From an uncultured Bacilli bacterium (GTDB taxonomy: Bacteria; Bacillota_I; Bacilli_A; RFN20; CAG-826): a DNA stretch of 64,000 nucleotides. The position numbers and the translations under genes were made by a program. The stretch is taken from NCBI GenBank assembly GCA_947625975.1, contig CANQQL010000001.1, forward strand, positions 10,833 through 74,832. The letters are read 5' to 3'. A model generated the notes under the pieces. That model saw nothing but the letters and a program-made list of their open reading frames with translations, was not told the DNA's origin and did no database searches. Numbering within the stretch: position 1 is the stretch's first letter; each line of letters starts with the position of its first letter. Positions 3,902 to 23,913 of this stretch are shown here, one piece after another.

Positions 3902-3936
3902 AATAAAAAAATCAAGGCGCTAACCTTGATTTTTTA
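3902..3936. terminator. bidirectional rho-independent terminator between the membrane-protein gene (+) and rpmB (-)
   Basis: Hairpin ATCAAGG-cgctaa-CCTTGAT at 3911-3930, with an A-run upstream and T-run downstream. Confidence 0.6.
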
Positions 3937-4128
3937 ATCTTGCTTAGTTGATTTATTAAGGGTTCTATAAGCACGCGCGGACATTCTAACTGTTTGAACA
4001 CGTCCATCAACGACGACCTTATATGGTTGTAAGTTGACATTCCATCTACGCGGAGTTGCTCTTAAGGAGTGAGAGCGTTTATTTCCACTTAAAGGTGCTT
4101 TACCTGTTACTGGGCAAACTCTTGACAT
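3934..4128 (-). CDS. rpmB: 50S ribosomal protein L28
   Basis: MSRVCPVTGKAPLSGNKRSHSLRATPRRWNVNLQ... is the canonical L28 sequence. Confidence 0.9.
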   Translation of the reverse strand: MSRVCPVTGKAPLSGNKRSHSLRATPRRWNVNLQPYKVVVDGRVQTVRMSARAYRTLNKSTKQD

Positions 4129-7600: not shown

Positions 7601-7655
7601 ATCTCTACAGGCTACGCTCTCGGAAAATGCTGATGTAGATGATAAAAATAATTAA
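4602..7655 (+). CDS. GH3-family glycoside hydrolase (beta-glucosidase/xylosidase-like), paralog A: N-terminal signal-anchor, permuted GH3 domains, C-terminal TM helix and charged coiled-coil tail
   Basis: FPFGYGLSYTTFEW (normally at the GH3 C-terminal/Fn3 junction) is near residue 375. The N-terminal-domain motifs GGRNFEYYSEDA, KHF and nucleophile GFNGFVITDY are at residues 740-860. TM segment IIIIDVILGIALLATLG, then a KKKEKPKKNKNVKKELLEEIDQLKERIKSL tail. Confidence 0.85.
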   Translation: MKKKPFTIMMGSIALAIAAIAIVGNILAFGTFDPVLTSYFGVEGATETSFKDNQYFERKYENAKDASDRADEISKEIEAEGAVLLKNDNSALPLAENSSVSMFSVSSVNFYSGKLYGSGAINSDGLLTLGQTLENANLKVNKTLENFYISKKNQYSRKIGGLNQGTSKTPYKWGINEVPYSEYTSEVIASYKNYNDAAIVVITREGAENGDLPRDMSEADPKNTGHILELDYNEKKMMEEVCKNFKKVIVLLNTTNTFELGFLDEYNIDACIWVGNVGLGMKSVGQIIAGEINPSGRTVDTYAYDLFSSPAMQNMGNYAYVNGSNETTGHYYLAYAEGIYIGYKYYETRYEDKVLNQGNAGNYNYDEVVQFPFGYGLSYTTFEWFDYSSAIKGDNIEVNVTVKNTGKIAGKDVVEVYYQSPYTAYDIKNKVEKASVNLGGIGKTKLLKAGESETITVSFPINDMKSYDSNNKKTYIFEAGDYYVTAATNAHNAINNILKEKGNNVDGNSELASKHNIKLRDVSKDDVTEVEIKNLFDDAKGDVKYLSRNNWSAMDNNGLLYGTAFGKDSDGPTYKHIIDAALKKELDTKGYAASGAPNEEFVEPTVGAKTNRKLIEFRGKDFNDHEWDELLNQVRKQEMVQMAKSSGHHTYAMPSVGKPYTTDSDGPSAWKPFIGDGISSGGLPGEIVHASTWNKKLAYEIGEIMGELCLWAKIEGKDTNPNLTGWYAPAMNIHRTPFGGRNFEYYSEDATLSAIIGSEVVKGATEKGVVTYIKHFAMNEQEANRMTDNVTWTNEQALREIYLRPFEVSIKEGKSLGLMSSYNRVGKVWSGGNYNLITGVLRTEWGFNGFVITDYMDGDYEDIDQMLAAGGDAALYSLNDKHLTLSGAQALTYLRRATKHCLYAFANSNAMNGISSGTVIIGGTPIYHRYIIIIDVILGIALLATLGSIPLKLLLARSNDTESGTPPRLEEKKKKEKPKKNKNVKKELLEEIDQLKERIKSLQATLSENADVDDKNN

Positions 7656-7820: not shown

Positions 7821-9533
7821 ATGAAAAACAAATTATCATTTTTAGTCCTTTTAACATTTGTGGGGATATCTCTTGCTGCTTGTGGAAACGAAGAGAATTC
7901 TACTCCTAGTGTGAATAATTCTACTACCCCTACATCATCTAATATCTATGATGACGATGTAGATTTAGAAGAAAAATACGGGACACCAACAAAATTTAAT
8001 TTGACAAATGGCACAGATACTATGTCTTTTGACACAAGCAAAAGAGGTTACTATTATGAAGCTGAAGCTGCAGATCTAACTTCGCCTGCAAAAGTAAAGG
8101 ATGGTGCGACTGCATCGGGTGGCCAATTTGTTGGTAATTTTGAACCGGGAGCAACAATGATTTTTGCTATTGATGTAGTAGAAGATACAGATGCAATGTT
8201 AATGGCATCAGCTGGTTATTGGAGTTCTGGGGATTATTATGTTGAAGACTTCCTCTATGTAACTTATGGTATTGACGACACATTCTTAGATAATGATATT
8301 AATCTAAGTGATGTTTCCTTTACAGGAAGTGGAAATTATAACACATTCCGTGAATTTGTCATTGGTGAAGTTCATTTGAAAAGTGGCATAAACTATATTG
8401 AATTTGACTCTTATGGCGATGCTCTTAACTATGATTATATTTGTTTAGTTGCACCATGGGATGGAACTCCTGATGAAGAAGAGAATATTGTTGATTTAAA
8501 AGAAAAATATGGTGACGTTAAAAAGAAACATCTTACAGATGGAACAGCAACAATGTCATTTGACGATAAGACAAGAGGCTATTACTATGAAGCTGAAAAA
8601 GCAACATTAAGTGAAAAGGTACAAATTGAGGATAATCCAAGTGCATCTGGTAAAAAAGTCATTACACATTTCAATCCAGGTGAGACAATGTTGTTTGAAA
8701 TTACCTCTAGTGTCGAAGCAGATGTTTTAGTTATGATGTCTGGGGCAATGTATGACCGAGTTGATGTTGCATTTAGAAATGCAGTTAAAATTAATTATGG
8801 TAACAGTCAAGATGGATTAGAAGGTGAAGTTAACTCGTACAATCAAATGTATACAGGTACTGGTGATTGGAATATTTATAAAGAATATATGATTGGAGAA
8901 ATTCACTTAGAAGAAGGAAAGAATTATATTAATTTATTATCTCTTACGGCAATAAACTATGATTATATTGCTCTCGTTAATGAATATGATGAAGTACGTG
9001 ATGGTGACTTTAAAGAAGATGTAGAAATTAATCTTGATGAAAAATACGGATATCCTACTAAAGATGTATTATTAAATGGCACAAGCGGTATGAAATTTGA
9101 TGATTCAGTTACTGGATATTACTACGAGGCAGAAGATGCAGATTTAAGTAGTGGCATTACTTTTGAAACTGGAAATATGTCAGGTGGAAAAGGTATTGGT
9201 CATTTCCAAAATGGTGCTACAATGACTTTCACAATCAATTCAGATGTGGAAACAGATGCTTTAGTAATGTTAGCAGTAACTAGATGGAATGACGGGGATT
9301 TGTTAATGAGTGATGCATTCAAATGCGAATATGGGGCAGATTTAAATAATTTATCTGGACAAGTAAACACATTTGAAAGATCAATTAAAAATCATCAAAG
9401 TTGGTCTGCTTATGAAGAATATAAAGTCGGAGAACTTCATTTAGTAGCAGGTGTTAACTATATCAAATTTACTGGTTATAATGCCGTAAATGTTGATTAT
9501 ATGTGTTTGGTTTCGCCAATTTTAGTAGCATAA
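7821..9533 (+). CDS. lipoprotein with three tandem CBM6/CBM35-like beta-sandwich repeats (about 185 aa each)
   Basis: Lipobox LAAC. Each repeat begins D/E-L-E-EKYG...RGYYYEAE and ends GE(I/V)HL..G.NYI.F....NYDY..LV, the CBM6/35-like pattern. Confidence 0.7.
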   Translation: MKNKLSFLVLLTFVGISLAACGNEENSTPSVNNSTTPTSSNIYDDDVDLEEKYGTPTKFNLTNGTDTMSFDTSKRGYYYEAEAADLTSPAKVKDGATASGGQFVGNFEPGATMIFAIDVVEDTDAMLMASAGYWSSGDYYVEDFLYVTYGIDDTFLDNDINLSDVSFTGSGNYNTFREFVIGEVHLKSGINYIEFDSYGDALNYDYICLVAPWDGTPDEEENIVDLKEKYGDVKKKHLTDGTATMSFDDKTRGYYYEAEKATLSEKVQIEDNPSASGKKVITHFNPGETMLFEITSSVEADVLVMMSGAMYDRVDVAFRNAVKINYGNSQDGLEGEVNSYNQMYTGTGDWNIYKEYMIGEIHLEEGKNYINLLSLTAINYDYIALVNEYDEVRDGDFKEDVEINLDEKYGYPTKDVLLNGTSGMKFDDSVTGYYYEAEDADLSSGITFETGNMSGGKGIGHFQNGATMTFTINSDVETDALVMLAVTRWNDGDLLMSDAFKCEYGADLNNLSGQVNTFERSIKNHQSWSAYEEYKVGELHLVAGVNYIKFTGYNAVNVDYMCLVSPILVA

Positions 9534-9710
9534 TTAAATAACTATAAAATCCAGTTCTAATCATGGACTGGTTTTTACATTATGTAAAAACTACACTGGG
9601 AATGTGCTTTAAATATGTAATGCTTTGTGATAAAATTAAATCGTAAACTTAATATTATTTTGTATTTATTAATTGAAAAAAAGCACAAAATAGCGTGTGA
9701 AAGGTTAATT

Positions 9711-10430
9711 ATGTTTAGAATAGCAATTATTGAAGATGAAAATAGCGTAGCGGATACATTAAAAGAATATATCAACAGATTCTTTTTAGATGCAAAAAGA
9801 GATTATATTGCTAATCGCTTTGATAATGCTATAAAATTTTTAGATCAATATAAATGTGAATACGATTTAGTTTTAATGGATATAAATTTGCCTGGATTAG
9901 ATGGAATGTCTGCCATTCAAAAATTGCGAGAAAAAGATAAGGAAGTTAAAGTTATTTTTGTGACATCTTTAGCTCAATATGCTATTAAAGGATATGAAGT
10001 TAATGCGTTTGATTTTGTAATTAAACCAGTTAACTATTATAATTTCGCGTTGAAATTAAATAGGGTTATTGAACATTTTGTAGAAGACGATGGTCATGAT
10101 ATTATACTAAAGAATAAATTGGGTTTAGTTAAATTAAATATCAATACAATAAAATATATTGAGGTATCTGATCATAAGTTAATATTCCATACGACAAATG
10201 GCAATTATGAAGAGTATGCCACTTTAAACAAATATTTAGATTTGCTTAAGGATGAATCTTTTTCCTTATGTAATAGATGCTATTTAGTTAATTTACAATA
10301 TGTGAAAAAAATTACTAAAGATACAGTCTATGTCCGAGACGAACAAATTCAAATGTCGCGAAGAAAATATAAAGATTTTATGGAAGATTTAAATAAATAT
10401 CTTGGAAGTGGCGGAAATATAAATGTTTAA
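9711..10430 (+). CDS. LytTR-family response regulator (REC + LytTR DNA-binding domain)
   Basis: MFRIAIIEDE...LVLMDINLPGLDG receiver motifs, with a C-terminal LytTR-like region. Start chosen at ATG 9711 (RBS AAAGG) rather than the track start. Confidence 0.85.
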   Translation: MFRIAIIEDENSVADTLKEYINRFFLDAKRDYIANRFDNAIKFLDQYKCEYDLVLMDINLPGLDGMSAIQKLREKDKEVKVIFVTSLAQYAIKGYEVNAFDFVIKPVNYYNFALKLNRVIEHFVEDDGHDIILKNKLGLVKLNINTIKYIEVSDHKLIFHTTNGNYEEYATLNKYLDLLKDESFSLCNRCYLVNLQYVKKITKDTVYVRDEQIQMSRRKYKDFMEDLNKYLGSGGNINV

Positions 10431-11760
10431 ACTCACACAATTGTTTATTTATAAAATCTTATTTGTCATTGAAATTTTAATTGCAATGCATCTTTTTTCA
10501 TTAAAACTGAAAAAGAAATCTTATCCAGTAGTGCGTTACATTTTATCCATAATTATAACTTTGATAATTGCAGTTTTCTTTCCGATTTTTGATGGATTTT
10601 CTTACACATGGTGGTATTCATCTATCATGTTTCTGTTTTTGTTTATGCTATGTATGGTTACAATGTTTATCATTTATGATTCTTCTTGGCAAAAAATATT
10701 ATTCATATCCCTAACATCTTATTCTATTCAGCATTTATCTCATGAAATATATAATATTGTTTCAATAATGTTAAATTTAACAGATCCAGTAGAATTTGAT
10801 GTCTATGGTTCGGAAATAATTGGTGTCGTTGCTCCAGCTTTCCAATTTGTGATAGTTGTTGCAGTGTTTTTTGTAGTATACTCCATCGCTTTTGTTTTTT
10901 TAAATAAGAAAATTAATGATTATGATGGTGGGAAAATTAATAATTCGGTTATTTTATTTATAAGTTCTTTAATTTTATTTACCGATATTATCTTAAATTC
11001 ATTTGTTATATATATCGAAGAAGAATATAACACTATATATTCATACACTATAGGATTATATAATATACTTTGCTGTTTTATGGTTTTGTTCATACAATTC
11101 AGTGTTATTAGTACTAAAAAAATACAAACCGAATTAGATATAACGCAGCAATTACTGCAAAAATCTGAAGAAAGATATATTCAAAGTAAAGAAAATATTG
11201 ATTTGATAAATTTGAAATGTCATGACTTACGTCATCAAATTAGAGAATATGGTAAAAAAGGTAGTTTGTCGCCAGAATCAATTATGGATTTAGAGCAAAT
11301 GATTAATATCTATGATTCGACTGTAAAAACAGGAAACAAAACATTAGACTTAATTCTTACAGAAAAAAGCTTAATTTGCCAAAAGAAAAATATCAAATTA
11401 ACATGCCTTGCAGATTGTTCTAAATTCAATTTCATTGCGGATTCTGATTTATATTCTCTCTTCGGAAACGCTCTCGACAACGCAATAGAAGCTGTGATGA
11501 AAATAAAAGATAAGGATAAAAGAAGTATTAATTTAATTATAAGAAATATTGAAAATTACATATCTATTTCTATAGAAAACTATTTTGAGGGAAGTATAAA
11601 ACTTAATAATGAAGGACTACCAATTACTACAAAGGGTGATTCTAATTATCACGGATTTGGAATAAAATCTATGAAATATATTGTAGAAAAATATAAAGGA
11701 ACATTATCAATATCATCAAACAAAGATATATATTCCGTGTTTATCTTGTTTGTAATTTAA
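10423..11760 (+). CDS. sensor histidine kinase, AgrC/LytS-like (polytopic N-terminus, GHKL ATPase)
   Basis: 6 N-terminal TM helices, H-box region NLKCHDLRHQ, and ATP-lid GFGIKSMKYIVEKYKGTL. Overlaps the RR gene by 8 nt. Confidence 0.8.
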   Translation: MFKLTQLFIYKILFVIEILIAMHLFSLKLKKKSYPVVRYILSIIITLIIAVFFPIFDGFSYTWWYSSIMFLFLFMLCMVTMFIIYDSSWQKILFISLTSYSIQHLSHEIYNIVSIMLNLTDPVEFDVYGSEIIGVVAPAFQFVIVVAVFFVVYSIAFVFLNKKINDYDGGKINNSVILFISSLILFTDIILNSFVIYIEEEYNTIYSYTIGLYNILCCFMVLFIQFSVISTKKIQTELDITQQLLQKSEERYIQSKENIDLINLKCHDLRHQIREYGKKGSLSPESIMDLEQMINIYDSTVKTGNKTLDLILTEKSLICQKKNIKLTCLADCSKFNFIADSDLYSLFGNALDNAIEAVMKIKDKDKRSINLIIRNIENYISISIENYFEGSIKLNNEGLPITTKGDSNYHGFGIKSMKYIVEKYKGTLSISSNKDIYSVFILFVI

Positions 11761-11786
11761 GAAGTGGTAAAACACTTCTTTTTTTC
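11761..11786 (+). terminator. rho-independent terminator after the histidine kinase gene
   Basis: GAAGTG-gtaaaa-CACTTC followed by TTTTTTT. Confidence 0.5.
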
Positions 11787-11894
11787 ACCACTTGCGAATA
11801 TAGTAAAGCCATGTACGGGCAAATGGTTGTTGTGCAAGTGCTTTCAATTTAAATTGAAAGTACTTAGTTTTCTAAGTGCGAAAGGAAAATTATT

Positions 11895-13058
11895 ATGCGT
11901 AAGTTTTCGATTTTTTGCTTATCTGCTTTTTTGATGCTAGGAGGATGTTTAGTTTCTTGTGACGAAACCGAACCAAGCGTCGTTAGTACTAATAATAGTG
12001 CAAAAGTACGTGAGGGCGATGTTTGCATTGATCTAGTAATTACTCAAATGCCAAAAAAACTCGAATACAAATCAGGTGAGAGATTCTCTCCTTTAGGATT
12101 AAAGTTTGATGCTGTTTATCAAAATGGTTTTGATGGTGATAAAGGACTAGAAGCTGGCGATCTTGATGGATGGACTCCATCTGGACCATTGACTTCAAAT
12201 GATAAGACAGTAAAACTTAAATTTGAGGGATTTGAAAAAGAGATTACTATCTCTGTTGAAGAAAAAGAATTGCTTGGTGTAGAAATAACGCGCGTGCCTG
12301 ATGTTAAGTCGTATTCATTTGGTGATCTTTTAAATTTAACTGGACTCGTTGTTCGTGCAACATATGAAGAAGGAGTTGATGAAAACGAGCAAAATTATGT
12401 AGTAAAAGATAACAAAGGCAAAGTTTATGTAAACGGCACTATTTTAGATGAAGCAAATCCAGAGCTAGAATTATTTGTAAGTGTAACTTCCAAAGGAAAA
12501 ACTTATTCTGATTCCTTTAAAATTGGTGTTTATTCCGGTTTATCTGTTCAAGCAGAAGATATCATCAAAGATGGTAATTTCCCTACAGACAAATCTTATA
12601 CAACTGTAAACGAAGATTATAGTGGATATTATGAATCTAAAGATGATTGCAATTTCACGGGTACTGGCTATATCGGTACAATAGGCAAAAATTTAGAATT
12701 GAACTTCTATATATATTCAAATGTGGAAATTAAAAATGCAAGACTAGTGTTAATTGCCTCCTCTACATGTCAAGGTAATGGAAGGATGGAAGATATGAAG
12801 TTTAATGATTGTTTCTCAGCATTTATTGGAGAAGACAATACAAAACTTAATGTAGATGATAGCGTAGTTATACCTGGTTTAGAATATCCTGCGGAAGGTA
12901 TGGGTAGCAAATGGACCAATTGGGCAGATGCAGAATTTGGCACAATTAACTTAGTAAAAGGATTTAATAAGGTAAGAATTGTGTGTGTAAATACCATCTT
13001 AGATGCATCAAATTATGGTCGTACCCCTAATGTTGATAGATTGGATATAAGATTTTAA
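11895..13058 (+). CDS. lipoprotein with two Ig-like (Big-type) domains and a C-terminal beta-sandwich domain
   Basis: Lipobox GGCLVSC. ITQMPKKLEYKSGERFSPLGLKFDAVYQNG and EITRVPDVKSYSFGDLLNLTGLVVRATYEEG match the bacterial Ig-like domain pattern. Confidence 0.65.
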   Translation: MRKFSIFCLSAFLMLGGCLVSCDETEPSVVSTNNSAKVREGDVCIDLVITQMPKKLEYKSGERFSPLGLKFDAVYQNGFDGDKGLEAGDLDGWTPSGPLTSNDKTVKLKFEGFEKEITISVEEKELLGVEITRVPDVKSYSFGDLLNLTGLVVRATYEEGVDENEQNYVVKDNKGKVYVNGTILDEANPELELFVSVTSKGKTYSDSFKIGVYSGLSVQAEDIIKDGNFPTDKSYTTVNEDYSGYYESKDDCNFTGTGYIGTIGKNLELNFYIYSNVEIKNARLVLIASSTCQGNGRMEDMKFNDCFSAFIGEDNTKLNVDDSVVIPGLEYPAEGMGSKWTNWADAEFGTINLVKGFNKVRIVCVNTILDASNYGRTPNVDRLDIRF

Positions 13059-13072
13059 TAAGAGGTAAAATT

Positions 13073-16000
13073 ATGAAAAAAAAGGGTAAGATTATATCAA
13101 TTGCTGCCATATCTTTAATTGCCACAACAATTGTTGTTGGCGATATTTTTGCTGCAAAATACCGCACAATTATTTCCACATTTTTTGGATTAACTGAACA
13201 AATTGAAGGCGACGCAGACAAAGTAGAAGAAGGCGCTAAAAGTGGTGATGGAGTAGTTAGAAAAATTGCTAATGAGGGTGTAGTTTTATTAAAAAACGAG
13301 TTAAATAGTGATGGAGTACAAACTTTACCACTTCCGAAATCTACGAAAAATATAAACATTTTTGGGTGGGGTGCTACAAACGATGGCTTCCTTTTAGCAG
13401 GTAATGGTTCTGGTAAATCTATTTCTCACGAAGATAACAAAGTGACACTATTACAAGCTTTTGAAAAAGAAGGATTAAGTTATAATAAAGAAATTATTGA
13501 AATATACGAAAAACATTGTTCTAAACCTAAAGATTGGGGAGAAACTCAAGAATGGGCATACCGTAACAATACTGAATTAAAAGAACCAGTGACAAATAAA
13601 GCTTTTTCAAACGAAGTTATAAATCGTGCTAAAGAGTTTTCTGATACAGCTGTTGTTGTTTTGTCACGTTATAGTGGAGAATATGTTGGTCGTATTGCAA
13701 CATACCAAGACAAACAAGGCTTGCCAAGAGATGAAACAAGATCTTTTAGTGAGATAACTACGGAAGAAGAAACATTATTAAAAATGTGTACAAGCAATTT
13801 TAAAAATGTTATTGTCGTATTTAATTCTGGTTCAACGATGAAAATGTCATTTTTAGATGATGTTGATAAAGTAGGGAAAATAGGTGCGGCTTTAAATGTT
13901 GGATATGTTGGTCAATCTGGCTCAAGCGCTATTCCTAAAATATTATTTGGTGATGTAAATCCATCTGGCAAAATGGCAGATACCGTTGCATTTAACCCAG
14001 AAAGAGATGAAATAACACGTGTCAATTGTAAAAGTGGATCAAATGATATCGTTTATGCCGAAGATATTTATATGGGATATAAGTGGTATGAGACCGCGGA
14101 TAAAGAAGGATATTGGAATCAGTATGGTGGATATAACAAAGTAGTGCAATTCCCATTTGGTTATGGCTTAAGCTACACAAAATTTGATTGGGAAATAGAA
14201 TCTGTTAGTTTAGAATCGGGAAGTTATTTAGATAAAGAAAGTGAAATTGAAATACAAGTTAAAGTTACTAATACTGGTAGTGTTGCTGGAAAAGATGTCA
14301 TCGAATTATATTATAGCGCTCCTTACACTAAAGGGGGAATTGAAAAGTCTGCAATTAATTTATTAGATTTTGCAAAAACTCCACTTTTAGAACCTTCAGA
14401 ATCTGCAACAGTTACATTTAAAGTGACACCTTATGATATGGCAAGTTATGATGCTTATTCCAAAAACGAAAATGGACTAACTGGATGGGAACTGGATGCC
14501 GGTCAATATCAGTTAAAACTTATGACAGATTCGCATCATCTAAAAGATATGCAAAACAATACTTTAAATTATAATGTTGATTATATTTTAAGGTATAATA
14601 AAGATCCACACACTAATGGAAGAATTAAAAATCGTTTTACAGGTGAAACTGCGTATGGTGAATTACCACTTGATGGCTCAACTTTAAATGCTCAAGATGG
14701 AAAACCTTGGACTTATCTATCACGTGGCGATATTCAAAATACTATTCCTAAAGTTCGCTCAAAATCTGCAAGTAGTGACTCTTTAGCACCGTATATTGGT
14801 TATAAAAATAGCAGTTTTGATGATATATATACAAGTTTACCAACAATGGGTCAAGAAAATAACTTGCGTTTAGTAACAAAATCTGATGGTAGTTTTGTTT
14901 CTAAAGAAGAATTCGAAGGGATAGTTACTGGTGATTTTACTTTAGTATATAATGATGATTTGCTTTTTGAACTTGCGGAAAATTTCGATAGTGAAAAATG
15001 GGATTTATTGTTAAATCAATTAACAGTTAATGACATGCGTGCCTTAGTAGAAGGTAGTGGCTATAAAACACAAGCAGCCGAAAGTGTTGGAAAACCTATG
15101 TATCTTGAATATGACGGACCATCAGGTTTTAATAGAACAAATATGTCACCTAATGTTCCTGGTTCAAGAATGACGGCATTCCCTGCACAAAATCTTGTTG
15201 CTCAAACATGGAACAAAGAATTAGCGTATCAAATGGGGCAAATTGTTGGTATAGACGGCAACAACTTTGGTATTAATGGAATTTATGCTCCTACTGTTAA
15301 TTTGCATCGCGAAATGCTAAATGAAAGAAATTATGAGTGTTATTCTGAAGATCCTATTGTATCTGGCTATATGGCAGCATCATTTATAAGAGGTGCTGCA
15401 AGTAATAACGTATACTGTTATTTGAAACATTTATGCCTCTATGACGCTAGCCCTTATACTGATATTCGTATTTGGCTTACTGAACAAAACTTTAGAGAAA
15501 ACTATTTAAAACCTTTTGAAATTGCAATAAAAAAAGGTGGAGCAAATGGTTTAATGGCTTCTTTTAATAAAATTGGTGCTACTTGGGCGGGATCAAATGA
15601 TGCAATGATTAATGGTATTATTCGCACTGAATTTGGTTTTAAAGGAACAGTTATTACTGACTGGTCAGATGGATCTAATCCTGTTATGGATATTCATGCG
15701 GGTTTACGTGGTGGTTTAAATACACAATTAAATCCTAATTACCCAACAAATACTGGTAAGTATGGAATTGTTGATTTCACTAATCCAGTAGAGGCAAATC
15801 TTGCTAGAGAATCTGCTAAATCAATTTTATATACATCATGTAATACGTATTATCGCGCAAAACATAACATTGATGTTAATGAATACACAGTTGATGTAAA
15901 CGGACCACAAGCAATTAAAAAAGGGTTTGAATGGTGGATACCAACACTTATTGCATTAGAGGTAGTTATTTTTGGCGCATTAGGATATTGGCTATATAGA

Positions 16001-16213
16001 GTTTTAAGAAAACAAAAATTTAAAAAACTTGAAAATTATGATATAAATAATAACCATTCTACAAATACTCCAGCATTTAAAGAAAAAGTCAAAAAAGCGA
16101 AGCACAAAAATGATGCGGAAATGGAAGAGGAAATACGTGGAGAAATAGAAAAACTAAAAGCACGTTTAAACGAATTAACAGACACGATATCACAAAAAGA
16201 TGAGAAATATTAA
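13073..16213 (+). CDS. GH3-family glycoside hydrolase, paralog B (same double-anchored, permuted architecture)
   Basis: VQFPFGYGLSYTKFDW near residue 365. NERNYECYSEDP, KHL and FGFKGTVITDW lie C-terminal. TM segment WWIPTLIALEVVIFGALGYWLY plus a KKAKHKNDAEMEEEIRGEIEKLKARLNELT tail. Confidence 0.85.
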   Translation: MKKKGKIISIAAISLIATTIVVGDIFAAKYRTIISTFFGLTEQIEGDADKVEEGAKSGDGVVRKIANEGVVLLKNELNSDGVQTLPLPKSTKNINIFGWGATNDGFLLAGNGSGKSISHEDNKVTLLQAFEKEGLSYNKEIIEIYEKHCSKPKDWGETQEWAYRNNTELKEPVTNKAFSNEVINRAKEFSDTAVVVLSRYSGEYVGRIATYQDKQGLPRDETRSFSEITTEEETLLKMCTSNFKNVIVVFNSGSTMKMSFLDDVDKVGKIGAALNVGYVGQSGSSAIPKILFGDVNPSGKMADTVAFNPERDEITRVNCKSGSNDIVYAEDIYMGYKWYETADKEGYWNQYGGYNKVVQFPFGYGLSYTKFDWEIESVSLESGSYLDKESEIEIQVKVTNTGSVAGKDVIELYYSAPYTKGGIEKSAINLLDFAKTPLLEPSESATVTFKVTPYDMASYDAYSKNENGLTGWELDAGQYQLKLMTDSHHLKDMQNNTLNYNVDYILRYNKDPHTNGRIKNRFTGETAYGELPLDGSTLNAQDGKPWTYLSRGDIQNTIPKVRSKSASSDSLAPYIGYKNSSFDDIYTSLPTMGQENNLRLVTKSDGSFVSKEEFEGIVTGDFTLVYNDDLLFELAENFDSEKWDLLLNQLTVNDMRALVEGSGYKTQAAESVGKPMYLEYDGPSGFNRTNMSPNVPGSRMTAFPAQNLVAQTWNKELAYQMGQIVGIDGNNFGINGIYAPTVNLHREMLNERNYECYSEDPIVSGYMAASFIRGAASNNVYCYLKHLCLYDASPYTDIRIWLTEQNFRENYLKPFEIAIKKGGANGLMASFNKIGATWAGSNDAMINGIIRTEFGFKGTVITDWSDGSNPVMDIHAGLRGGLNTQLNPNYPTNTGKYGIVDFTNPVEANLARESAKSILYTSCNTYYRAKHNIDVNEYTVDVNGPQAIKKGFEWWIPTLIALEVVIFGALGYWLYRVLRKQKFKKLENYDINNNHSTNTPAFKEKVKKAKHKNDAEMEEEIRGEIEKLKARLNELTDTISQKDEKY

Positions 16214-16463
16214 AGATGTCAAAGAAAATAATGTGATAGAAATTGAGGATACAAAAGAAGCTGAAAAAGTAGAAAATAAAGAACCTAGTGAAATAGTTAA
16301 AAAAAATAAAGATGGTAAATGGCAAATTAAACTAGCAACTGGCGAAAGAGCAATTAAGCTCTTTGACAAACAAAGAGATGCCATTGAATACGCTAAAAAT
16401 TTAATGGAAACACAAGGTGGATCAATTCGTATCCATTCCCTTAAAGGAAAAATTAGGAAATAG
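16200..16463 (+). CDS. DUF2188-like small protein (87 aa)
   Basis: KDGKWQIKLATGERAIKLFDKQRDAIEYAKNLMETQGGSIRIHSLKGKI fits the DUF2188 pattern. The start overlaps the last 14 nt of GH3 paralog B. Confidence 0.5.
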   Translation: MRNIKDVKENNVIEIEDTKEAEKVENKEPSEIVKKNKDGKWQIKLATGERAIKLFDKQRDAIEYAKNLMETQGGSIRIHSLKGKIRK

Positions 16464-16490
16464 TAATATCGTTTTATATATCCTCCTTAA

Positions 16491-16538
16491 CCCCAACAAT
16501 CAGATGGAATCCAAAAGGATTGTTGGGGCATTTTATTT
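16491..16538 (+). terminator. rho-independent terminator
   Basis: 11-bp perfect stem CCCCAACAATC...GATTGTTGGGG followed by TTTTATTT. Confidence 0.65.
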
Positions 16539-16716
16539 ACTTAAAATTGTTTTAATTATATTTAATTAAAAACATCGCTAACCATTTACGAATAAAGTCA
16601 CACCATATACGTTTAATTTATAGCGGATGAAACTGCTTTCATTTATTTTATAAATGGATTATGACGATATTACAAATTAGTTTCTAAAATGTATCGAAAA
16701 TAAAGGAGAAAAGTTT

Positions 16717-19371
16717 ATGAAAAGTACATGGAAAAAATTGTTAATTGGATTAGCATTAGGTGCTATAGCAATTCCTGGTGCATCTATAAGTAATGGTGCC
16801 AAATTAAGTGAAGAAGCAAAAGATTTGCTTAATGATGGATCAAGCAAACATTTTAAAAACGCCATTCAAGTTGGTAGTAGTGATGTTTTGGATGTTTCAC
16901 CTATGTTTGTGCAATACGGAAAAAATAGTGAGCAAAAAGATTGCTTGAGATTTGCGGTTGCTTTAACTGGTGAAATCAAAAATATTAAATTTGTTAGAAG
17001 TGCATTTGATGGTGCTTTAGAAAACACAAAAATTGTAGACACAGTATACAAAGGAATACTTTCAAATGGAGAAACTGTATATTATAACCCTGCTGCAGGG
17101 ACAAAAAATGGTTTAACAAATGATATTGGTTATGCTGGCGAATATCTATGGGCTTGCTATACAATCAAGTTTGAATCTGATACATACAAATCCCAAAATT
17201 TAGAAGTAACTATTTTTGTTGATGGTGAAGAAAAAACTAGTAGGACAGCAAGTCTAGAAAATGTTAAAGCTGGTAATAGTGACGAAGTAGAGAAAGTTGA
17301 TTTAGATAAAAAATATGGTGAATTTACTCAATATGATTTATTAGATGGAGTTAGTTCAAATTCAATGATATTTGATTATAACAATAGAGGATATCGTTAT
17401 GAAACCGAATCTAGCTTGGTAAACAAAACTTCTGGTAATCTTGAAAATTCAAATAATAAGAGCATATCTGGTGATGGAGACTGGGGAAGTATTCACAATG
17501 GTGCAAACATTACATATACTATTGAATCTGATGAAGATAGAGATGCTCTTTTAGTGGCAAGTATAGCTAGAGATGGTGAAGCAGTTAATGCTACAGAAAT
17601 GATGACTGTTACATATGGCACAGATTTAGAGAACTTAAATAAAACAATTGATCTTTCTAGTCGTCAATTTACATTCTTAAAGGGATGGACAAGATTTAGA
17701 CTATTTACAATTGGCGAAGTTCATTTAAAAAAAGGCGCAAACTACATCAACTTTACTACTGGTGCAACTGGCTGTAACTATGACTATATTGGCTTAGTAA
17801 GACCATGGAATGATGAGGTTGACGTAGCAAATAAACCGATAGATTATATGAAGAAATATGGAACTTTCGCAAAAGATTTGATGATTGATGGAAGTGATAC
17901 AAAAGAATTCTCTACATCCGAAGCTGGTTACTTCTATGAAGCAGAAAAAGCAAATTTTTATGGCGTAAATGGCATTGGCACAGAAGATAATTCTAGTGCA
18001 TCTAATGGAAAAGTTGTCAATAGATTTAGATATGGTGATCATATTCAATTTGAAATTAATTCAAATGAGAAAGCAACTGTTGGACTTGTTTTATCAATGT
18101 CAACAGAAGCTGGACCAACATTCCAATACGATGATGCATTGACAATTCGTTATGGAACAAGTTCTAGCAATTTGGATAAAGTAGTTACCAACTTTAATAA
18201 AGACGGAAATCTTTTGGGTAGTGGATTTAAAAACTGTAGAGTACATACAATTTGTGAAGTTACATTAGAAAAAGGCGTTAACTATATTGATTTACAAAGT
18301 CGTGATGCATTCAATGTTGACTATATGGCATTAGTTAATGAACAAGAAGAAACTGCAAATATTTATGAAAAATACACACCATATGATAAAGAATTATTAA
18401 TAGATGGTAGTGAAAAAGATAGCGATAACGCCATGACATATAACTCAAATGAGTTAGGTTACTATTATGAAGCAGAAAAAACAGATGTTGATGGCGGGGT
18501 AACAATTGAATCTGGTTGTATTAAAAAATTTAATTCTGTAACAGCAACTGTCACACTTACTATTAAAGCTGATAAAGATTGTGAAGCCTTATTAACTATG
18601 GCAGCAACAAGGTGGAACGATAACACAATTCTATTAAGCAATGTATTGACTGCTTATTATGGAACAGATTTAAATAATTTAAAAAAGAGCGTGAATACAG
18701 AAGAAAGGTGGATGAATAATCATTCTAACTGGGATGGTAATTTTGTAAATTACTCAATAGGCGAAGTTAAATTAAAAGCGGGTATTAACTACATTAAGTT
18801 AGTTGGTGTTGCTAATAGCGGTGGTATTAATATTGATTACTTCACTCTTGTTTCGCCTGCTAATAAGTCTTTGAATTCTATATACGAATATGATTCATCT
18901 GTAAAACAAAATGGATTAGTCGATGGCACAAGCAATATGACATTCGACTTAAATAATAAAGGATATTTCTATGAAATAGAAAATGCAGCGTTATCTTCAG
19001 GAATTGGATCTGAATCTGGAAATTCGTTATCTGGAGGAAAAGGTATTGGTAGTTTCCAATATGGAAGAACTGCAATGTTCACCATTGAATCTAATACTGA
19101 TACAGATGTTCTTGTATATATGGCAATTGCTGAGGGAAATTATGAATTACAAATGTGCAATGCTTTCTCATTAAGATATGGAACAACAGCTGAAGCATTA
19201 GATGGCCAAGCATATATGGGTAATACTTTAATTGCTAAAAATGGGTGGAGCAGTTATTCTGAATATATGGTTGGCGAAATCCATTTATCACAAGGAACAA
19301 ACTATATCTTACTAACATCAAAAATCCCAGTTAACTTAGATTATATGTGTTTAATTGCACCTAATGCATAA
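16717..19371 (+). CDS. secreted protein (884 aa): N-terminal domain plus five tandem CBM6/CBM35-like repeats
   Basis: Signal peptide MKSTWKKLLIGLALGAIAIPGA. Contains repeated ...GY(R/F/Y)YEAE..., GE(V/I)HL..G.NYI and N.DY..LV blocks. Confidence 0.7.
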   Translation: MKSTWKKLLIGLALGAIAIPGASISNGAKLSEEAKDLLNDGSSKHFKNAIQVGSSDVLDVSPMFVQYGKNSEQKDCLRFAVALTGEIKNIKFVRSAFDGALENTKIVDTVYKGILSNGETVYYNPAAGTKNGLTNDIGYAGEYLWACYTIKFESDTYKSQNLEVTIFVDGEEKTSRTASLENVKAGNSDEVEKVDLDKKYGEFTQYDLLDGVSSNSMIFDYNNRGYRYETESSLVNKTSGNLENSNNKSISGDGDWGSIHNGANITYTIESDEDRDALLVASIARDGEAVNATEMMTVTYGTDLENLNKTIDLSSRQFTFLKGWTRFRLFTIGEVHLKKGANYINFTTGATGCNYDYIGLVRPWNDEVDVANKPIDYMKKYGTFAKDLMIDGSDTKEFSTSEAGYFYEAEKANFYGVNGIGTEDNSSASNGKVVNRFRYGDHIQFEINSNEKATVGLVLSMSTEAGPTFQYDDALTIRYGTSSSNLDKVVTNFNKDGNLLGSGFKNCRVHTICEVTLEKGVNYIDLQSRDAFNVDYMALVNEQEETANIYEKYTPYDKELLIDGSEKDSDNAMTYNSNELGYYYEAEKTDVDGGVTIESGCIKKFNSVTATVTLTIKADKDCEALLTMAATRWNDNTILLSNVLTAYYGTDLNNLKKSVNTEERWMNNHSNWDGNFVNYSIGEVKLKAGINYIKLVGVANSGGINIDYFTLVSPANKSLNSIYEYDSSVKQNGLVDGTSNMTFDLNNKGYFYEIENAALSSGIGSESGNSLSGGKGIGSFQYGRTAMFTIESNTDTDVLVYMAIAEGNYELQMCNAFSLRYGTTAEALDGQAYMGNTLIAKNGWSSYSEYMVGEIHLSQGTNYILLTSKIPVNLDYMCLIAPNA

Positions 19372-19383
19372 AGGTAATTAAAT

Positions 19384-20811
19384 ATGAATAAGAAAACTAT
19401 TGTTGCACTTGCGTGTATGGCTTTACTCACAGGTCTAACATCTTGTGATAAAGGTGGTTCAAGTACAAATAATTCAGGAGATAGGTCGACACCAACATAT
19501 GTCGACCAGGATCCATATGTTATGAGTATTGAAATAATTTCTGCACCTAAAAAATTAGTGTATTTTGCTGGAGAATTTTTTGAGGCATCAGGTTTAAGAT
19601 TCAACGCTGTTTGGAATATTGATGGGGAAGAAGAACTCATTGAAGACATGACTGCTTCTGATTGTGAATATTCTCCAAGAGGCCGAGCTTTAACTGTTGA
19701 AGATAAAAAAGTTGTGTTTAATATTGGTGGATATGAATTTTCTTTTGATATAACTGTAAATGATGCCGTAAATATTGAAGAAAAATATGGCAATGCAAAG
19801 AAACAATATCTTCAAAATGGTACAGGAAGCATGTCTTTTAATGATAATGTACGTGGATATTATTATGAAATGGAAAATGCAACAAGTTTAAGTGATAATA
19901 TTCGGATTGCCGATGATATTGTTGCATCAGGAGGAAAATATATTTCTTATTTCAATCCTAATGAAGAAGTAATGTTTTCGATAAATTCAAGTGTCGAAGT
20001 TGATACTTTAATGATGCTTTCTGGTGCGATGGAAAATCGTGTTGAAGTTATGTTAACTAGTGCGTTTGAAATAACTTATGGAACAAATTTAGACGATTTA
20101 TCTAATAAAGTAGAAACATATTATTTTAGTTTTACAGGCACTGGTCAATGGAATATATTTAAAGAATTTAATGTCGGTGAGATTCATTTAGAAGAAGGAA
20201 TAAATTATATTAAGATTAAATCGTTAAGGGCAATAAATTACGATTTTATGTCTCTTGTTAACGTATACGATGAGTCTCGCGATAGCGGTGATATTGATGA
20301 TAAGGAAATAGATCTTGAAGAGAAATATGGCACACCAACTAAAAATCAATTATTAGATGGTACAAATAATATGAAATTTGATGATTCCGTTACTGGATAT
20401 TACTACGAGGCAGAGAGTGCTCAATTAAGTGATGGCATTACTTTAGAAACTGGATCAATGTCTGGTGGACAAGGTATCGGAAGATTTAGAAATGGAGAAA
20501 CAATGACGTTTTCTATTATCTCTGACGTAGAAACTGATGCGTTAGTCATTTTATCATTGACTAGATGGAATGATGGAGATTTGTCAATGAGCGATGCATT
20601 CTTAGGAGAATATGGTACTGATTTAGAGAATTTAACAAAATCAATTAATACATTCTCCCGTACAATTCATAATCATCAAAGTTGGTCGGCATATCAAGAA
20701 TATAACGTTGGAGAAGTTCATTTAGGTCAAGGTGTTAATTATATTAAATTTACGGCGTATCAGGCCGTAAACGTTGATTATATGTGTTTGGTTAATCCGC
20801 TCATTTCGTAA
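19384..20811 (+). CDS. lipoprotein: Ig-like domain plus two CBM6/CBM35-like repeats
   Basis: Lipobox LTSC. ISAPKKLVYFAGEFFEASGLRFNAVWNIDGEE is an Ig-like segment. Two YYYE(M/A)E repeats, with the last one about 80% nt-identical to the last repeat of the 7821-9533 gene. Confidence 0.7.
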   Translation: MNKKTIVALACMALLTGLTSCDKGGSSTNNSGDRSTPTYVDQDPYVMSIEIISAPKKLVYFAGEFFEASGLRFNAVWNIDGEEELIEDMTASDCEYSPRGRALTVEDKKVVFNIGGYEFSFDITVNDAVNIEEKYGNAKKQYLQNGTGSMSFNDNVRGYYYEMENATSLSDNIRIADDIVASGGKYISYFNPNEEVMFSINSSVEVDTLMMLSGAMENRVEVMLTSAFEITYGTNLDDLSNKVETYYFSFTGTGQWNIFKEFNVGEIHLEEGINYIKIKSLRAINYDFMSLVNVYDESRDSGDIDDKEIDLEEKYGTPTKNQLLDGTNNMKFDDSVTGYYYEAESAQLSDGITLETGSMSGGQGIGRFRNGETMTFSIISDVETDALVILSLTRWNDGDLSMSDAFLGEYGTDLENLTKSINTFSRTIHNHQSWSAYQEYNVGEVHLGQGVNYIKFTAYQAVNVDYMCLVNPLIS

Positions 20812-20826
20812 TAGTGAGGTGTCAAT

Positions 20827-23800
20827 ATGAAGAAACTAACAAAAGGAAATATATTTACACTAGTAGCTTTTGCCGTTATTCTTGTGGGAGTGGCTATAGG
20901 CAATTACGAATGCTATATTCATTCTACCGAAATTACAACTCATTTAATCGGAACGGGTGTTGTGATTGATTCAGAAAAGGCTCAAAACGCTTTACTAGAT
21001 GGTGATGAGCTAGTAGAAAAAATTGCCGCAGAAGGTATTGTAATGCTAAAAAATGATAACGTTCTACCTTTAAGTGTGGATAAAGATAAAGGTTATAATG
21101 TTAACTTATTTGGAGTCGGATCTACTGATGATGGGTTTGCCTATACTGGCGTAGGTGGAAGCGGTGTTGCCACAATCATAAGTGAGGATATTTTAAATAG
21201 TGATGGCACTATTAAATATAAGCATAATAGAGTTACTCTAAAAGAAGGTTTAGAACAAGCTGGTTTTAAAGTAAATACTACATTATTAGACAAATATAAA
21301 GATGGAAATCCAGATCCTTCGTTTTATAGCACGGACGATAGTGTTTTAAAAAGTGCCAAAGAATATTCTGATACGGCTATTATTACAATTACAAGACAAA
21401 CAGGAGAAAATTATAAAACTAGTGAATTAGTTGGCGATGTGGATAACGGATTACAAATTACAAGTAAAGAACAGGCAATAATTGACTATGTTTGTGATAA
21501 TTATGATAAGGTAATTATTTTAATAAATTCAACAAACACAATGGAAATGGGATATTTGCAAAATCCTAAAATTAAGGCGTGTCTTAATGTTGGAGTACCA
21601 GGTCAATCTGGAACAAGAGCAATTGGAAAGATTTTATCAGGAGATGTAAATCCTTCTGGTAAATTAGTAGATACTATTCCTTATGATACTACACAAGACC
21701 CTACTTGGGCGAATGCGATTCGAGAGGGTGGAGGAAATGGTAAAAACCAAATCTTCTATGCCGAAGATATTTATATAGGTTATAAATGGTATGAAACAGC
21801 GGATAAAGAAGGCTACTTTAACTCTGTACAAAACGACTATGGTGAAGGTTATGATGGAGTTGTTCAATATCCGTTTGGATATGGATTAAGCTACACTGAT
21901 TTTGAGTGGACACTTAAGAGTGCTGGTTTTGAAGTAGATGGAATAAAGACAGAATTGTCAAAAAGCAATATTTTGACAGATAAAAAAGCTGTCATCAATC
22001 TTGAAGTAGAAGTTAAAAACACTGGTACTGTGGCAGGAAAAGATGTTGTACAGGTATATGTGAATGCACCTTATTATAAAGGAGAGATAGAAAAACCATA
22101 TATTCGTCTAGTTAATTTTGGCAAAACTTCAATTTTAGAGCCAAATCAAACTGAAACTTTATCAATTTCTTTTGATATATACGACTTTGCATCTTACGAC
22201 TGTTATGATGCTAATAACAATGGGATTAGTGGTTGGGAACTTGATCCAGGTGATTATTGTCTTAAATTAATGACAGATGCACATCACCAATCAAATGTTG
22301 AAGATATTACTTTTGTCGTTCCGAGTGCTGAATCAGATACAGGCAGAAAAGGATTTTTGTATCGCTTCGATAATGATTCTAAGGGCTATATAAAAAACAG
22401 ATTTACTGGTGAAAGTGCGGAAGCTGGTGTCCCTATTGATGGAAGTAGTTTTGATCAAGACCCTGTTGTTTATTTATCAAGAAATGACTTTAGCAGTACA
22501 TTTCCTAAAACAAAAACAAAAAATAGAACTGAGTCAATTGTTGCGGATACATTTATAAATTATTATTATAAAGGTTATGATGATCAAAGTGATTTAGTTG
22601 CTCCAATTTTAAATAGAAACAGCGAAGAAATGCTATATTTATATACTTTGGAAGATGGCTCGAAGGCTTCATTAAATGACTTAGAAGGGACAGGAAAAAC
22701 TGTTGTTCCAAACGAAGAGTTAATCTTAGAATTGGGAGAAAATTATAAGAGCGAAAAATGGAATGAGTTATTGTCGCAAATGTCAATAACAGATATTAAC
22801 AACTTTATTTCGAGTGCTGGATTTGGGACAAAACCTATTGAAAGCATCGGGAAACCAAATTTGCTTGATTATGATGGAAGTTGTGGATTTAACCATAAAA
22901 TGGCTAATACTTATGTCAGCAATGCTTGGACTGGATATGCTGGAGAATTTGTTTTAGCCCAAACATATAATGTTGATTTAGCATTGCAAGTTGGACGTGT
23001 TATGGGTGCGGAAGCAAAAGTTACTGGTGGAATGACTGGTATTTACGCTCCTTGTGTTAACTTACACCGTACTCCTTATAATACAAGAAACTATGAGGCT
23101 TATAGTGAGGATGGTTTACTTTCTGGTTATATTGCTGCTAATGTTATTTATGGTGCTAAAACTAATGGCTTGTCTTGTTATATCAAACATTTTGCCCTAT
23201 CAGAACCTGGCTGGAATCCCAATGATTTAGCGACATGGTTAACTGAACAAAACTTAAGAGAAAACTATTTAAAACCATTTGAAATTGCAGTGAAAAAAGC
23301 TGAAGTGAATGCTGTAATGAGCGCATTTAATTGTGTTGGTGCAGTAAGATGCTGTAATAGTTATTCCTTACTTACAGAAATCTTAAGAAAAGAATGGGGC
23401 TTTAAAGGCTCAGTAATAACAGATTATAATATGGGAGAAATTTCTCAACACGTACGTGCTGGCAATGACTTGCACTTAAATCCTAATACAACTGTTATGA
23501 ATTGGATTAATGAAAAGAGTGTTGGAGATGTTTATAGTGGATATTTAGCAGTTAAAAACTCATTATTTACCTATTGTAATACGTATTATACAGCAAAAAC
23601 TTATGATCCATCTGCATCATTGGGAGTTTCCAAACGTGTTGAGCAATTCGTTTGGTGGATTCCTGTATTAATTTTCGCTGATTTATTAGTAGTCGGTTCA
23701 ATTGCGTTCTGGTTATTTAGAATGTTTAAAACGCCTAAGACAACGACTGATATAAATATTATTGCGACGGGAGATACTAAAAAGAAGAACAGGAAGAATG

Positions 23801-23913
23801 ATAAAAGAATTCAAGATTTGATTGAGGAATTGAAATTGCTTAATAAAGAATTAGATGATTTAGAAAAATTAAAAAAACAGCGGGAAAGTAAGGATGATTC
23901 AAATGAAGAATAA
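20827..23913 (+). CDS. GH3-family glycoside hydrolase, paralog C (double-anchored, permuted)
   Basis: VQYPFGYGLSYTDFEW near residue 350. NTRNYEAYSEDG, KHF and WGFKGSVITDY lie C-terminal. TM segment WWIPVLIFADLLVVGSIAFWLF plus a KKKNRKNDKRIQDLIEELKLLNKELDDLEKLKK tail. Confidence 0.85.
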   Translation: MKKLTKGNIFTLVAFAVILVGVAIGNYECYIHSTEITTHLIGTGVVIDSEKAQNALLDGDELVEKIAAEGIVMLKNDNVLPLSVDKDKGYNVNLFGVGSTDDGFAYTGVGGSGVATIISEDILNSDGTIKYKHNRVTLKEGLEQAGFKVNTTLLDKYKDGNPDPSFYSTDDSVLKSAKEYSDTAIITITRQTGENYKTSELVGDVDNGLQITSKEQAIIDYVCDNYDKVIILINSTNTMEMGYLQNPKIKACLNVGVPGQSGTRAIGKILSGDVNPSGKLVDTIPYDTTQDPTWANAIREGGGNGKNQIFYAEDIYIGYKWYETADKEGYFNSVQNDYGEGYDGVVQYPFGYGLSYTDFEWTLKSAGFEVDGIKTELSKSNILTDKKAVINLEVEVKNTGTVAGKDVVQVYVNAPYYKGEIEKPYIRLVNFGKTSILEPNQTETLSISFDIYDFASYDCYDANNNGISGWELDPGDYCLKLMTDAHHQSNVEDITFVVPSAESDTGRKGFLYRFDNDSKGYIKNRFTGESAEAGVPIDGSSFDQDPVVYLSRNDFSSTFPKTKTKNRTESIVADTFINYYYKGYDDQSDLVAPILNRNSEEMLYLYTLEDGSKASLNDLEGTGKTVVPNEELILELGENYKSEKWNELLSQMSITDINNFISSAGFGTKPIESIGKPNLLDYDGSCGFNHKMANTYVSNAWTGYAGEFVLAQTYNVDLALQVGRVMGAEAKVTGGMTGIYAPCVNLHRTPYNTRNYEAYSEDGLLSGYIAANVIYGAKTNGLSCYIKHFALSEPGWNPNDLATWLTEQNLRENYLKPFEIAVKKAEVNAVMSAFNCVGAVRCCNSYSLLTEILRKEWGFKGSVITDYNMGEISQHVRAGNDLHLNPNTTVMNWINEKSVGDVYSGYLAVKNSLFTYCNTYYTAKTYDPSASLGVSKRVEQFVWWIPVLIFADLLVVGSIAFWLFRMFKTPKTTTDINIIATGDTKKKNRKNDKRIQDLIEELKLLNKELDDLEKLKKQRESKDDSNEE

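Follow-up and report, generated by a model that had tools for sequence, protein, structure and literature searches.

CBM6/35-like surface proteins beside membrane-tethered GH3 glycosidases in an uncultured Bacilli bacterium: a probably old repeat family with signs of rare short exchange

Introduction

Lipid-anchored, non-catalytic proteins with several glycan-binding domains, encoded next to glycosidases and a sensor or regulator, are known from the SusE/F-type surface glycan-binding proteins (SGBPs) of Bacteroidota and from the surface proteins with carbohydrate-binding modules (CBMs) in the polysaccharide utilization loci (PULs) of Gram-positive bacteria. Here, we describe four plus-strand genes, A, B, C and D, in a 64,000-nt window (the whole stretch of DNA analyzed, to which all coordinates refer) of contig CANQQL010000001.1 from an uncultured Bacilli bacterium of the gut or rumen. 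Their products are built from units resembling CBM6/CBM35, and the genes are interspersed with those of three GH3 glycosidases. We put at about 0.72 the probability that they constitute an old, mostly stable family of CBM6/35-type surface glycan binders working with membrane-tethered GH3 enzymes. A first-pass annotation had read the locus as a family of CBM6/35-like repeat lipoproteins reshaped by recent duplication or gene conversion; as a whole it was partly confirmed, with its numbers corrected, and its interpretation was partly supported.

The closest structural relatives are the characterized CBM35 and CBM6 modules (Rhe-CBM35, 2w1w/2w47; Chi-CBM35, 2vzp; Pel-CBM35, 2w3j; the CBM35 of cycloisomaltooligosaccharide glucanotransferases (CITase), 3wnk/5x7g; CtCBM6, 1gmm). 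The units of the window share with these the predicted β-jelly-roll fold, an N-terminal 'YEAE' strand, a C-terminal 'N-x-D-Y' motif, attachment to glycoside hydrolases and, in a weak alignment, an aromatic residue and an Asn where the characterized modules have the region A Trp and the region C Asn. They differ in being only 13-22% identical to the characterized modules, below the Pfam CBM_6 threshold, in having ~165 aa with an N-terminal extension of ~30 aa, and in forming arrays of 2-8 units that are mostly found on stand-alone lipoproteins rather than appended to enzymes.

With respect to organization, the placement of genes A-D beside glycosidases and a regulator suggests an analogy, drawn from general knowledge, to the SGBPs. 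Unlike those systems, the locus has neither a SusC/D pair nor an outer membrane to serve, both ends of its GH3 exo-enzyme partners appear to be anchored in the cytoplasmic membrane, and the genes identified in the island include none for a transporter.

A third comparison is with repeats under concerted evolution, as in the variable lipoproteins of Mollicutes. The likeness lies in a short, apparently non-reciprocal transfer between repeats of lipoprotein genes and in the clustering of units within a protein in some relatives. The differences are several: we found a single event, no silent donor cassettes, invertible promoters or homopolymer switches, and units that are 30-45% identical at the protein level and keep their orthology between species. 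Further, genes of the diaminopimelate (DAP) pathway are present, so nothing suggests a wall-less organism; a wall-less, Mollicutes-like host, considered as an explanation for the membrane anchoring described below, was dropped for this reason and because TGA is a stop codon here.

Results

Repeat units and their predicted fold

Units were mapped by a motif search and by a hidden Markov model (HMM) built from the units themselves. The four open reading frames (ORFs), of 570, 387, 884 and 475 aa, lie within 7821-20811 as annotated at first pass, and a direct-repeat search recovered a recurring block spaced by 531-540 nt (~177 aa). Nine canonical units of ~165 aa each are present in the window: three in A, where the repeat HMM finds three domains with E-values of 1e-64 to 1e-71, four in C and two in D. 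In addition, B has one very divergent unit, ~20% identical to the others (repeat HMM, E=5e-6). The earlier count of 3, 1, 5 and 2 copies in A, B, C and D thus holds for A and D, and for B with its divergent copy, and falls to four for C. We considered the N-terminus of C as a fifth, degenerate repeat and rejected this: its first ~190 aa are unmatched by the repeat HMM, and an AlphaFold2 (AF2) model predicts a distinct all-β fold of ~165 aa (predicted local distance difference test score, pLDDT, 86), for which neither Pfam nor, below E=1e-3, a fold search of the PDB gave a match. This all-β domain is itself conserved, being found also in the relatives P0002, P0006, P0031 and P0034, and it heads several multi-CBM proteins of the family.

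The proposal of Ig-like domains ahead of the repeats is borne out by the head of B, which matches Pfam Big_3, and by that of D, which resembles the B head (35% identity, E=1e-11). The description of all four proteins as lipoproteins applies to A, B and D, in which lipoboxes can be read from the sequences (...SLAAC|G, ...LVSC|D and ...GLTSC|D, respectively), but not to C, which has a signal peptide and lacks the lipobox cysteine.

Pairwise comparison of the units singles out two relationships between A and D. The last units, A3 and D2, are 73-74% identical at the protein level and 76-77% at the nucleotide level, somewhat less than the ~80% nucleotide identity first reported. The match of the middle repeat of A to the first repeat of D was also recovered, A2 and D1 being 55% (protein) and 67% (nucleotide) identical, while every other pair of units in the window has a protein identity of 29-45%. 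When the window is compared with itself, the best BLAST match joins 8500-9512 to 19778-20793 (71.5% over 1019 nt, E=2e-149), making A2-A3 against D1-D2 the strongest DNA self-match; because this match spans both units, the relationship of the two-unit cassettes is real and continuous across the linker. As for the identical runs quoted at first pass, the 21-mer occurs at both loci (9492 and 20773), and so does the longer string (9090 and 20371) except for its last G.

Three lines of evidence connect the units to CBM6/35. First, a profile of the nine units searched against the PDB matched the CBM35 of CITase significantly, if weakly, with E=1.7e-4; a 26-unit profile gave the same picture (E=2.7e-4), and the repeat profiles also match Pel-CBM35 (2w3j) and Chi-CBM35 (2vzp). 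Second, the AF2 model of A3 (pLDDT 91, predicted template modeling score 0.88) retrieved CBM35/CBM6 structures from the PDB in a Foldseek search, with E-values of 2e-8 to 2e-6 and TM scores of 0.78-0.81 when normalized to the free-standing CBM35/CBM6 modules; nearly all of the best 50 PDB matches are CBM35/CBM6. The model of A3 therefore has the β-jelly-roll fold of the CBM6/CBM35 modules, a β-sandwich of ~120-140 residues, to which each unit adds an extra N-terminal helix/strand segment of ~30 aa ('EKYG...'). Third, the ligand site of CBM6/35 is marked by a Trp in region A and an Asn in region C (PMC9843283). All 26 of 26 units have the Asn of the N-x-D-Y motif, and a HMMER alignment to 2w3j, itself weak (E=0.05), places this residue opposite the Asn in 'ANID' and pairs the loop Trp with 'NW'. 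By eye, this loop residue is a Trp in seven of the nine window units, a Tyr in A1 and a Phe in C2.

Strict membership as defined by the curated Pfam CBM_6 model is another matter: five of the nine units match it below threshold, the best score being 26.2 bits for the whole of protein A and that of unit A3 being 21.9, and Pfam gave no CBM match for proteins C or D, so that the units fall outside the family as this model delimits it. Taken together, the profile, AF2/Foldseek and signature-residue results support the CBM6/35-like assignment made at first pass at the level of the predicted fold, and make it plausible at the level of the binding site.

GH3 partners and conserved neighborhood

All four repeat genes adjoin a GH3 gene: GH3a precedes A, B lies directly 5' of GH3b, and D lies directly 5' of GH3c with C upstream of D. 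The three enzymes, which are mutually 31-39% identical, show a permuted domain order in Pfam (GH3_C, then an Fn3-like domain, then GH3_N), and their nearest solved relatives are β-glucosidases (2x40, 5wug and 5k6l). An N-terminal hydrophobic anchor or transmembrane (TM) helix was detected in each; a second, C-terminal TM helix can be read by eye in all three and leads into a K/E-rich tail that resembles a coiled coil. Judged by these features, the three enzymes appear to be tethered to the membrane at both ends, with the tail in the cytoplasm. A LytTR-type response regulator and a GHKL histidine kinase sit between A and B and are likely to be the regulator of the island, and past GH3c there are two carboxylesterases and one DUF4886 protein. 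The island is chromosomal and lies between pknB-rsgA-rpe and a stretch with Wadjet and glycogen genes.

The neighborhood recurs in relatives. In contig L001, from a related species, the ortholog of GH3b is 71% identical, the two-component pair keeps its position, and a TM-loop-TM linker joins the ortholog of GH3a in frame to four A-type units (L001 1238-6469). Other in-frame fusions of GH3 to the repeats were found in P0029, P0039 and P0054, and in a metagenome-assembled genome (MAG) of a Bacilli bacterium whose GH3 is only 42% identical the repeat proteins still adjoin the enzyme. These fusions and the conserved neighborhood tie the units functionally to GH3. In L001, an ISL3-family transposase (L001 6610-7920) lies directly downstream of the GH3::CBM fusion and before the ortholog of C.

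A bolder reading would make the units a new CBM family that shares the CBM35-like fold, has an N-terminal extension and a ligand of its own and serves the permuted GH3 enzymes of uncultured gut and rumen Bacilli as multivalent binders anchored to the membrane; the genes could in addition be recombination hotspots through which strains retune their glycan capture. We think this rather unlikely; its hotspot part could draw on conversion between paralogs, as seen in contig L002, and on the import of divergent alleles, as seen between contigs L014 and L001 (both described below).

Unit orthology and modular growth

The preferred reading of an old and mostly stable binder family is supported by a per-unit tree, in which units of the window pair with units at the same position in the related species: A1/LA1 (bootstrap 99), C1/LC1 (90), C3/LC3 (97) and C4/LC4 (88). 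The pairing A2/LA2 has a bootstrap of 55, within a clade of A2, D1 and LA2 at 100. This position-specific orthology between species implies that the arrays are old and ordered and have not been freely shuffled.

The proteins do show the modular build claimed at first pass. In D, the signal peptide and the Ig-like head are of the B type and the tail is of the A2-A3 type; the A array has three units here and four in L001, and B has one CBM-like domain here and two in its L001 ortholog; LA3 and LA4, being 62% identical, would stem from a lineage-specific duplication. In P0029 and P0031, the units of each protein are one another's closest relatives. Among the strain contigs compared, we found no change of copy number within the species. 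Judged by the sequences, the family grew as single units and the two-unit cassette were duplicated (the latter from A2-A3 to D1-D2), as heads were swapped and, in other lineages, as units were fused to GH3.

A different kind of change was seen between strains of the sister species. Contigs L014 and L001 are 98-100% identical in their flanks, and in the GH3::CBM gene and the ortholog of C (L001 2500-6500 and 9000-10600) they differ in blocks at 78-90% identity. The synonymous divergence (dS) of these blocks is 0.4-1.1 with dN/dS of 0.02-0.25, and the catalytic part is affected as well as the repeats, which suggests divergent alleles imported by homologous recombination under purifying selection.

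Age of the A2-A3/D1-D2 duplication

The first-pass annotation took the similarity of A and D as a sign of recent duplication. The synonymous sites speak against this. The dS values of 0.83-0.89 for A3/D2 and 1.19 for A2/D1 are in the range of those of interspecies orthologs (A2/LA2, 0.92; A3/LA4, 1.09), so that synonymous sites are essentially saturated between the cassettes. Where A3 and D2 have the same residue, the codon is also the same in 67% of cases, against 51% predicted by codon usage and 56% for all other unit pairs pooled, with one unrelated pair also reaching 67%. A permutation test for clustering of synonymous identity was negative (A3/D2, p=0.86; A2/D1, p=0.13) and hence gave no signal of a conversion tract between A and D within this genome, and the longest runs shared by the two genes are 26, 21 and 18 nt. 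The 76% nucleotide identity therefore mostly reflects protein conservation and AT-biased codon use. The two esterases of the island are about as alike as A3 and D2 (74% nucleotide and 67% protein identity; 24262-24940 against 26581-27259), which suggests that genes of the island went through a period of duplication more generally. The duplication of the cassette is not recent, and the saturation of synonymous sites indicates that the events of duplication, swap and fusion are old.

The two halves of the cassette nevertheless tell different stories. A3 and D2, with 74% protein identity, are closer to each other than to the orthologs LA3 and LA4 (52-57%), and their grouping has a bootstrap of 99; A2 and D1 (55%) are less alike than A2 and its ortholog LA2 (64%). 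Thus, paralogs are closer than orthologs, as expected under concerted evolution, for A3/D2 and not for A2/D1. This pattern fits one old duplication in which the last unit was later homogenized or replaced; a difference in rates does not explain it well by itself, since the branch of A2 shows no shortening.

It is in this light that a recent duplication with continuing concerted evolution has to be weighed, in which the repeats would drive frequent recombination and so vary the surface proteins within populations. Such a process would account for the clustering of A3 and D2 against their orthologs, for the within-protein clustering of units in P0029 and P0031, for the variation of unit number between species and for the strain changes described next, which all fall in repeat genes of one sample that, in the flanks, is 99.9-100% identical to the window. 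We consider it unlikely, given dS values equal to those of interspecies orthologs, identical codons that are unclustered (p=0.86), longest shared runs of merely 26, 21 and 18 nt, other strain contigs that are nearly identical to the window, position-specific orthology across species, and the fact that no change of copy number was seen within the species.

Putative exchange and deletions in a strain of the same species

One sample (ENA ERZ27248987, a SPAdes assembly with a coverage of ~2.4) supplied both contig L002 and contig L005. L002 is 99.9% identical to window 18643-21868 and has, within D2, eight changes in 21 nt, all eight of them to the A3 state. The resulting patch matches A3 exactly at 9132-9152, and no other site of the window comes within four mismatches of it; it is flanked by runs common to A3 and D2, of 26 nt upstream and 11-12 nt downstream. 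On either side, the closest diagnostic sites are still in the D2 state, and the conversion tract would therefore measure 21-56 nt; since A3 is unchanged in L005 from the same sample, the transfer would be non-reciprocal. Two deletions accompany the patch (Table 1): an in-frame segment of D2 that includes the putative binding-site Trp is missing from L002, and a segment of A2 is missing, with a frameshift, from L005. Their junctions share only ~3 nt of microhomology, and gene A may be a pseudogene in this strain. Three further contigs (L003, L004 and L006) differ from the window by 0-2 mismatches and one 1-nt indel, and a fourth sample (P0011) has a D2 of the window type.

We regard it as decidedly unlikely that these differences are artefacts of low-coverage assembly in an old paralogous family without any exchange. 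The origin of both contigs from one sample with a coverage of ~2.4, and the restriction of all three oddities to that sample, would be expected of artefacts. A chimera, however, would have to enter A3 through the 26-nt run and exit through the 11-12-nt run; as the downstream run is shorter than any assembly k-mer, this is improbable. Likewise, the patch lies inside an otherwise perfect D2 context, and deletion junctions sharing ~3 nt do not look like collapsed k-mers. There is thus some evidence, at the level of the sequence, that short non-reciprocal exchanges between A3 and D2 still occur occasionally. Of the gene conversion claimed at first pass, this leaves one 21-nt patch of the A3 type and the discordance of the cassette halves, and nothing larger; the further claim that the repeats are a substrate for recombination-driven variation finds no support in repeat number, no variation of which was found within the species. 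The exchange would be a rare and short event atop an old family, rather than the working of an active variation device.

Distribution of the family

The family is sparsely sampled. Among 5.8 billion protein clusters at 90% identity, a word-indexed search found only seven relatives of A; a profile search run exhaustively over 1.84 billion representatives gave 506 proteins at E<=1e-3, of which 194 reach E<=1e-10 and 37 reach E<=1e-30. Among the matches listed, most carry 2-8 units, and the samples of the relatives are from the human gut and the rumen. A search of genome contigs of GTDB representatives with protein A gave 121 pattern matches, none of which was confirmed, and the source species is therefore not among these representatives. 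Neither was any match confirmed in JGI metagenome contigs searched with an alignment of A3, D2, LA3 and LA4, where the source species is missing as well, and a search of genome contigs with an alignment of GH3b returned only distant MAGs of a 'Bacilli bacterium' and of Oscillospiraceae. A literature search on tandem CBM35 lipoproteins with GH3 found nothing relevant.

In P0030, P0032 and P0033, the CBM35-like units are combined with Listeria-Bacteroides repeats or BspA-type leucine-rich repeats (LRRs), and the proteins with eight units and Listeria-Bacteroides repeats are 2195-2336 aa long. Such combinations hint at adhesin-like uses of the module.

It is very unlikely that the units of the window keep a CBM35 fold without binding carbohydrate, as adhesin or protein-binding modules or as spacers holding GH3 off the membrane: the identity of only 13-22% to characterized CBMs, the presence of the fold in non-CBM proteins such as a domain of Cry5B, the adhesin-typical repeats of P0033 and P0030 and the extra ~30-aa segment absent from classic CBM35 would suit this, but the signature Asn is invariant, the loop residue is aromatic in 9/9 window units, the units are repeatedly fused to or adjacent to GH3 alongside esterases, and profile and fold searches both rank CBM35/6 first.

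Coordinates and neighboring features

The features of the locus are collected in Table 1. An Rfam scan of the entire window gave zero matches, and a promoter scan was uninformative (118 sites against 108 expected).

Table 1. Coordinates of the glycan island and of strain-variable sites in its repeat genes
Feature	Position	Strand	Description
GH3a	4602-7655	+	Domain-permuted GH3 glycosidase, N- and C-terminal TM helices, K/E-rich tail; co-directional with gene A
Gene A	7821-9533	+	Predicted lipoprotein (lipobox LAAC), three CBM35-like units
Unit A1	7956-8453	+	CBM35-like, gene A
Unit A2	8487-8981	+	CBM35-like, gene A
113-nt A2 segment	8862-8974 (approximate ends)	+	Deleted with frameshift in L005 (L005 ~932-946)
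Unit A3	9024-9530	+	CBM35-like, gene A
A3 donor for L002 patch	9132-9152	+	Exact match
Terminator-like hairpin, then T run	9551-9571	+	3' of gene A; consensus scan only
LytTR-type response regulator	9627-10430	+	Pfam Response_reg and LytTR
GHKL histidine kinase	10423-11760	+	Pfam HATPase_c_5
Gene B	11895-13058	+	Predicted lipoprotein, Ig-like (Big_3) head, one divergent CBM6/35-like domain (~12534-13055)
GH3b	13073-16213	+	Permuted membrane-anchored GH3; starts 15 nt past the end of gene B
Gene C	16717-19371	+	Signal peptide without lipobox, N-terminal β domain, four units
Gene C N-terminal β domain	~16804-17304 (also given as ~16804-17290)	+	AF2 model
Unit C1	17293-17802	+	CBM35-like, gene C
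Unit C2	17836-18339	+	CBM35-like, gene C
Unit C3	18361-18855	+	CBM35-like, gene C
Unit C4	18868-19368	+	CBM35-like, gene C
Gene D	19384-20811	+	Predicted lipoprotein (lipobox LTSC), B-type Ig-like head, two units
Unit D1	19765-20262	+	Paralog of A2
Unit D2	20305-20808	+	Paralog of A3
Conversion patch site in D2	20413-20433	+	L002 alignment: 8 changes within 21 nt, 8/8 to A3 state
39-nt in-frame segment (SRTIHNHQSWSAY, with putative binding-site Trp)	20655-20693 (ends ± 1-3 nt)	+	Deleted in L002 (L002 ~2010)
GH3c	20827-23913	+	Permuted membrane-anchored GH3; starts 15 nt past the end of gene D
Lipoprotein carboxylesterase	23894-25021	+	Island accessory gene
DUF4886 protein	25047-26420	+	Island accessory gene
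Second esterase	26561-27280	+	Island accessory gene

The glycan island is closely followed by a Wadjet-type defense cluster (28268-33748) that consists of JetA (PF18982), a JetB-like protein with DUF4194 and an SMC-like JetC; the ORF after it (33775-34677) codes for a DUF3137 protein and not for a recognizable JetD. Elsewhere in the window there are a perfect 28-nt palindrome (58802-58829) and a 52-nt imperfect inverted repeat (3895-3946), which also scores as a bidirectional terminator-like hairpin.

Discussion

We propose that A, B, C and D act as cell-surface glycan-binding proteins, of which A, B and D would be lipid-anchored and C secreted or signal-anchored, each being a string of divergent CBM6/35-type β-jelly-roll modules. 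Their partners would be the three membrane-tethered, permuted GH3 exo-glycosidases, probably β-glucosidase-like, together with the esterases and the LytTR system. In such an arrangement, the multivalent CBM arrays might retain oligo- or polysaccharide chains of plant or dietary origin at the membrane surface for the GH3 enzymes to trim from the ends.

Several points weigh against this reading of the locus and its history. The scores with the Pfam CBM_6 model, 21.9-26.2 bits, lie below the gathering score of 28.9, and the signature residues were mapped by weak sequence alignments (E=0.05) and not by structural superposition. The specificities of CBM35/6 modules range widely. The co-transcription of the CBM genes with GH3 is one that we infer from spacing only. 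With ~165 residues per unit, the discordance of the cassette halves could partly be due to unequal rates, and the conversion patch was seen in just one SPAdes contig, of low coverage (2.4).

Overall, we see in the locus a fairly ordinary, poorly catalogued carbohydrate-capture system. An old cassette duplication with rare micro-conversion is usual for families of repeat domains and opens no new question. The GH3 fusions, in turn, provide a 'Rosetta-stone' link of binder to enzyme. If binding is confirmed, the units would extend the CBM6/35 modules by a branch that has been sparsely sampled, and the locus would show how glycan capture may be organized in uncultured Bacilli of the gut and rumen, by free multi-CBM lipoproteins standing beside doubly tethered GH3 enzymes.

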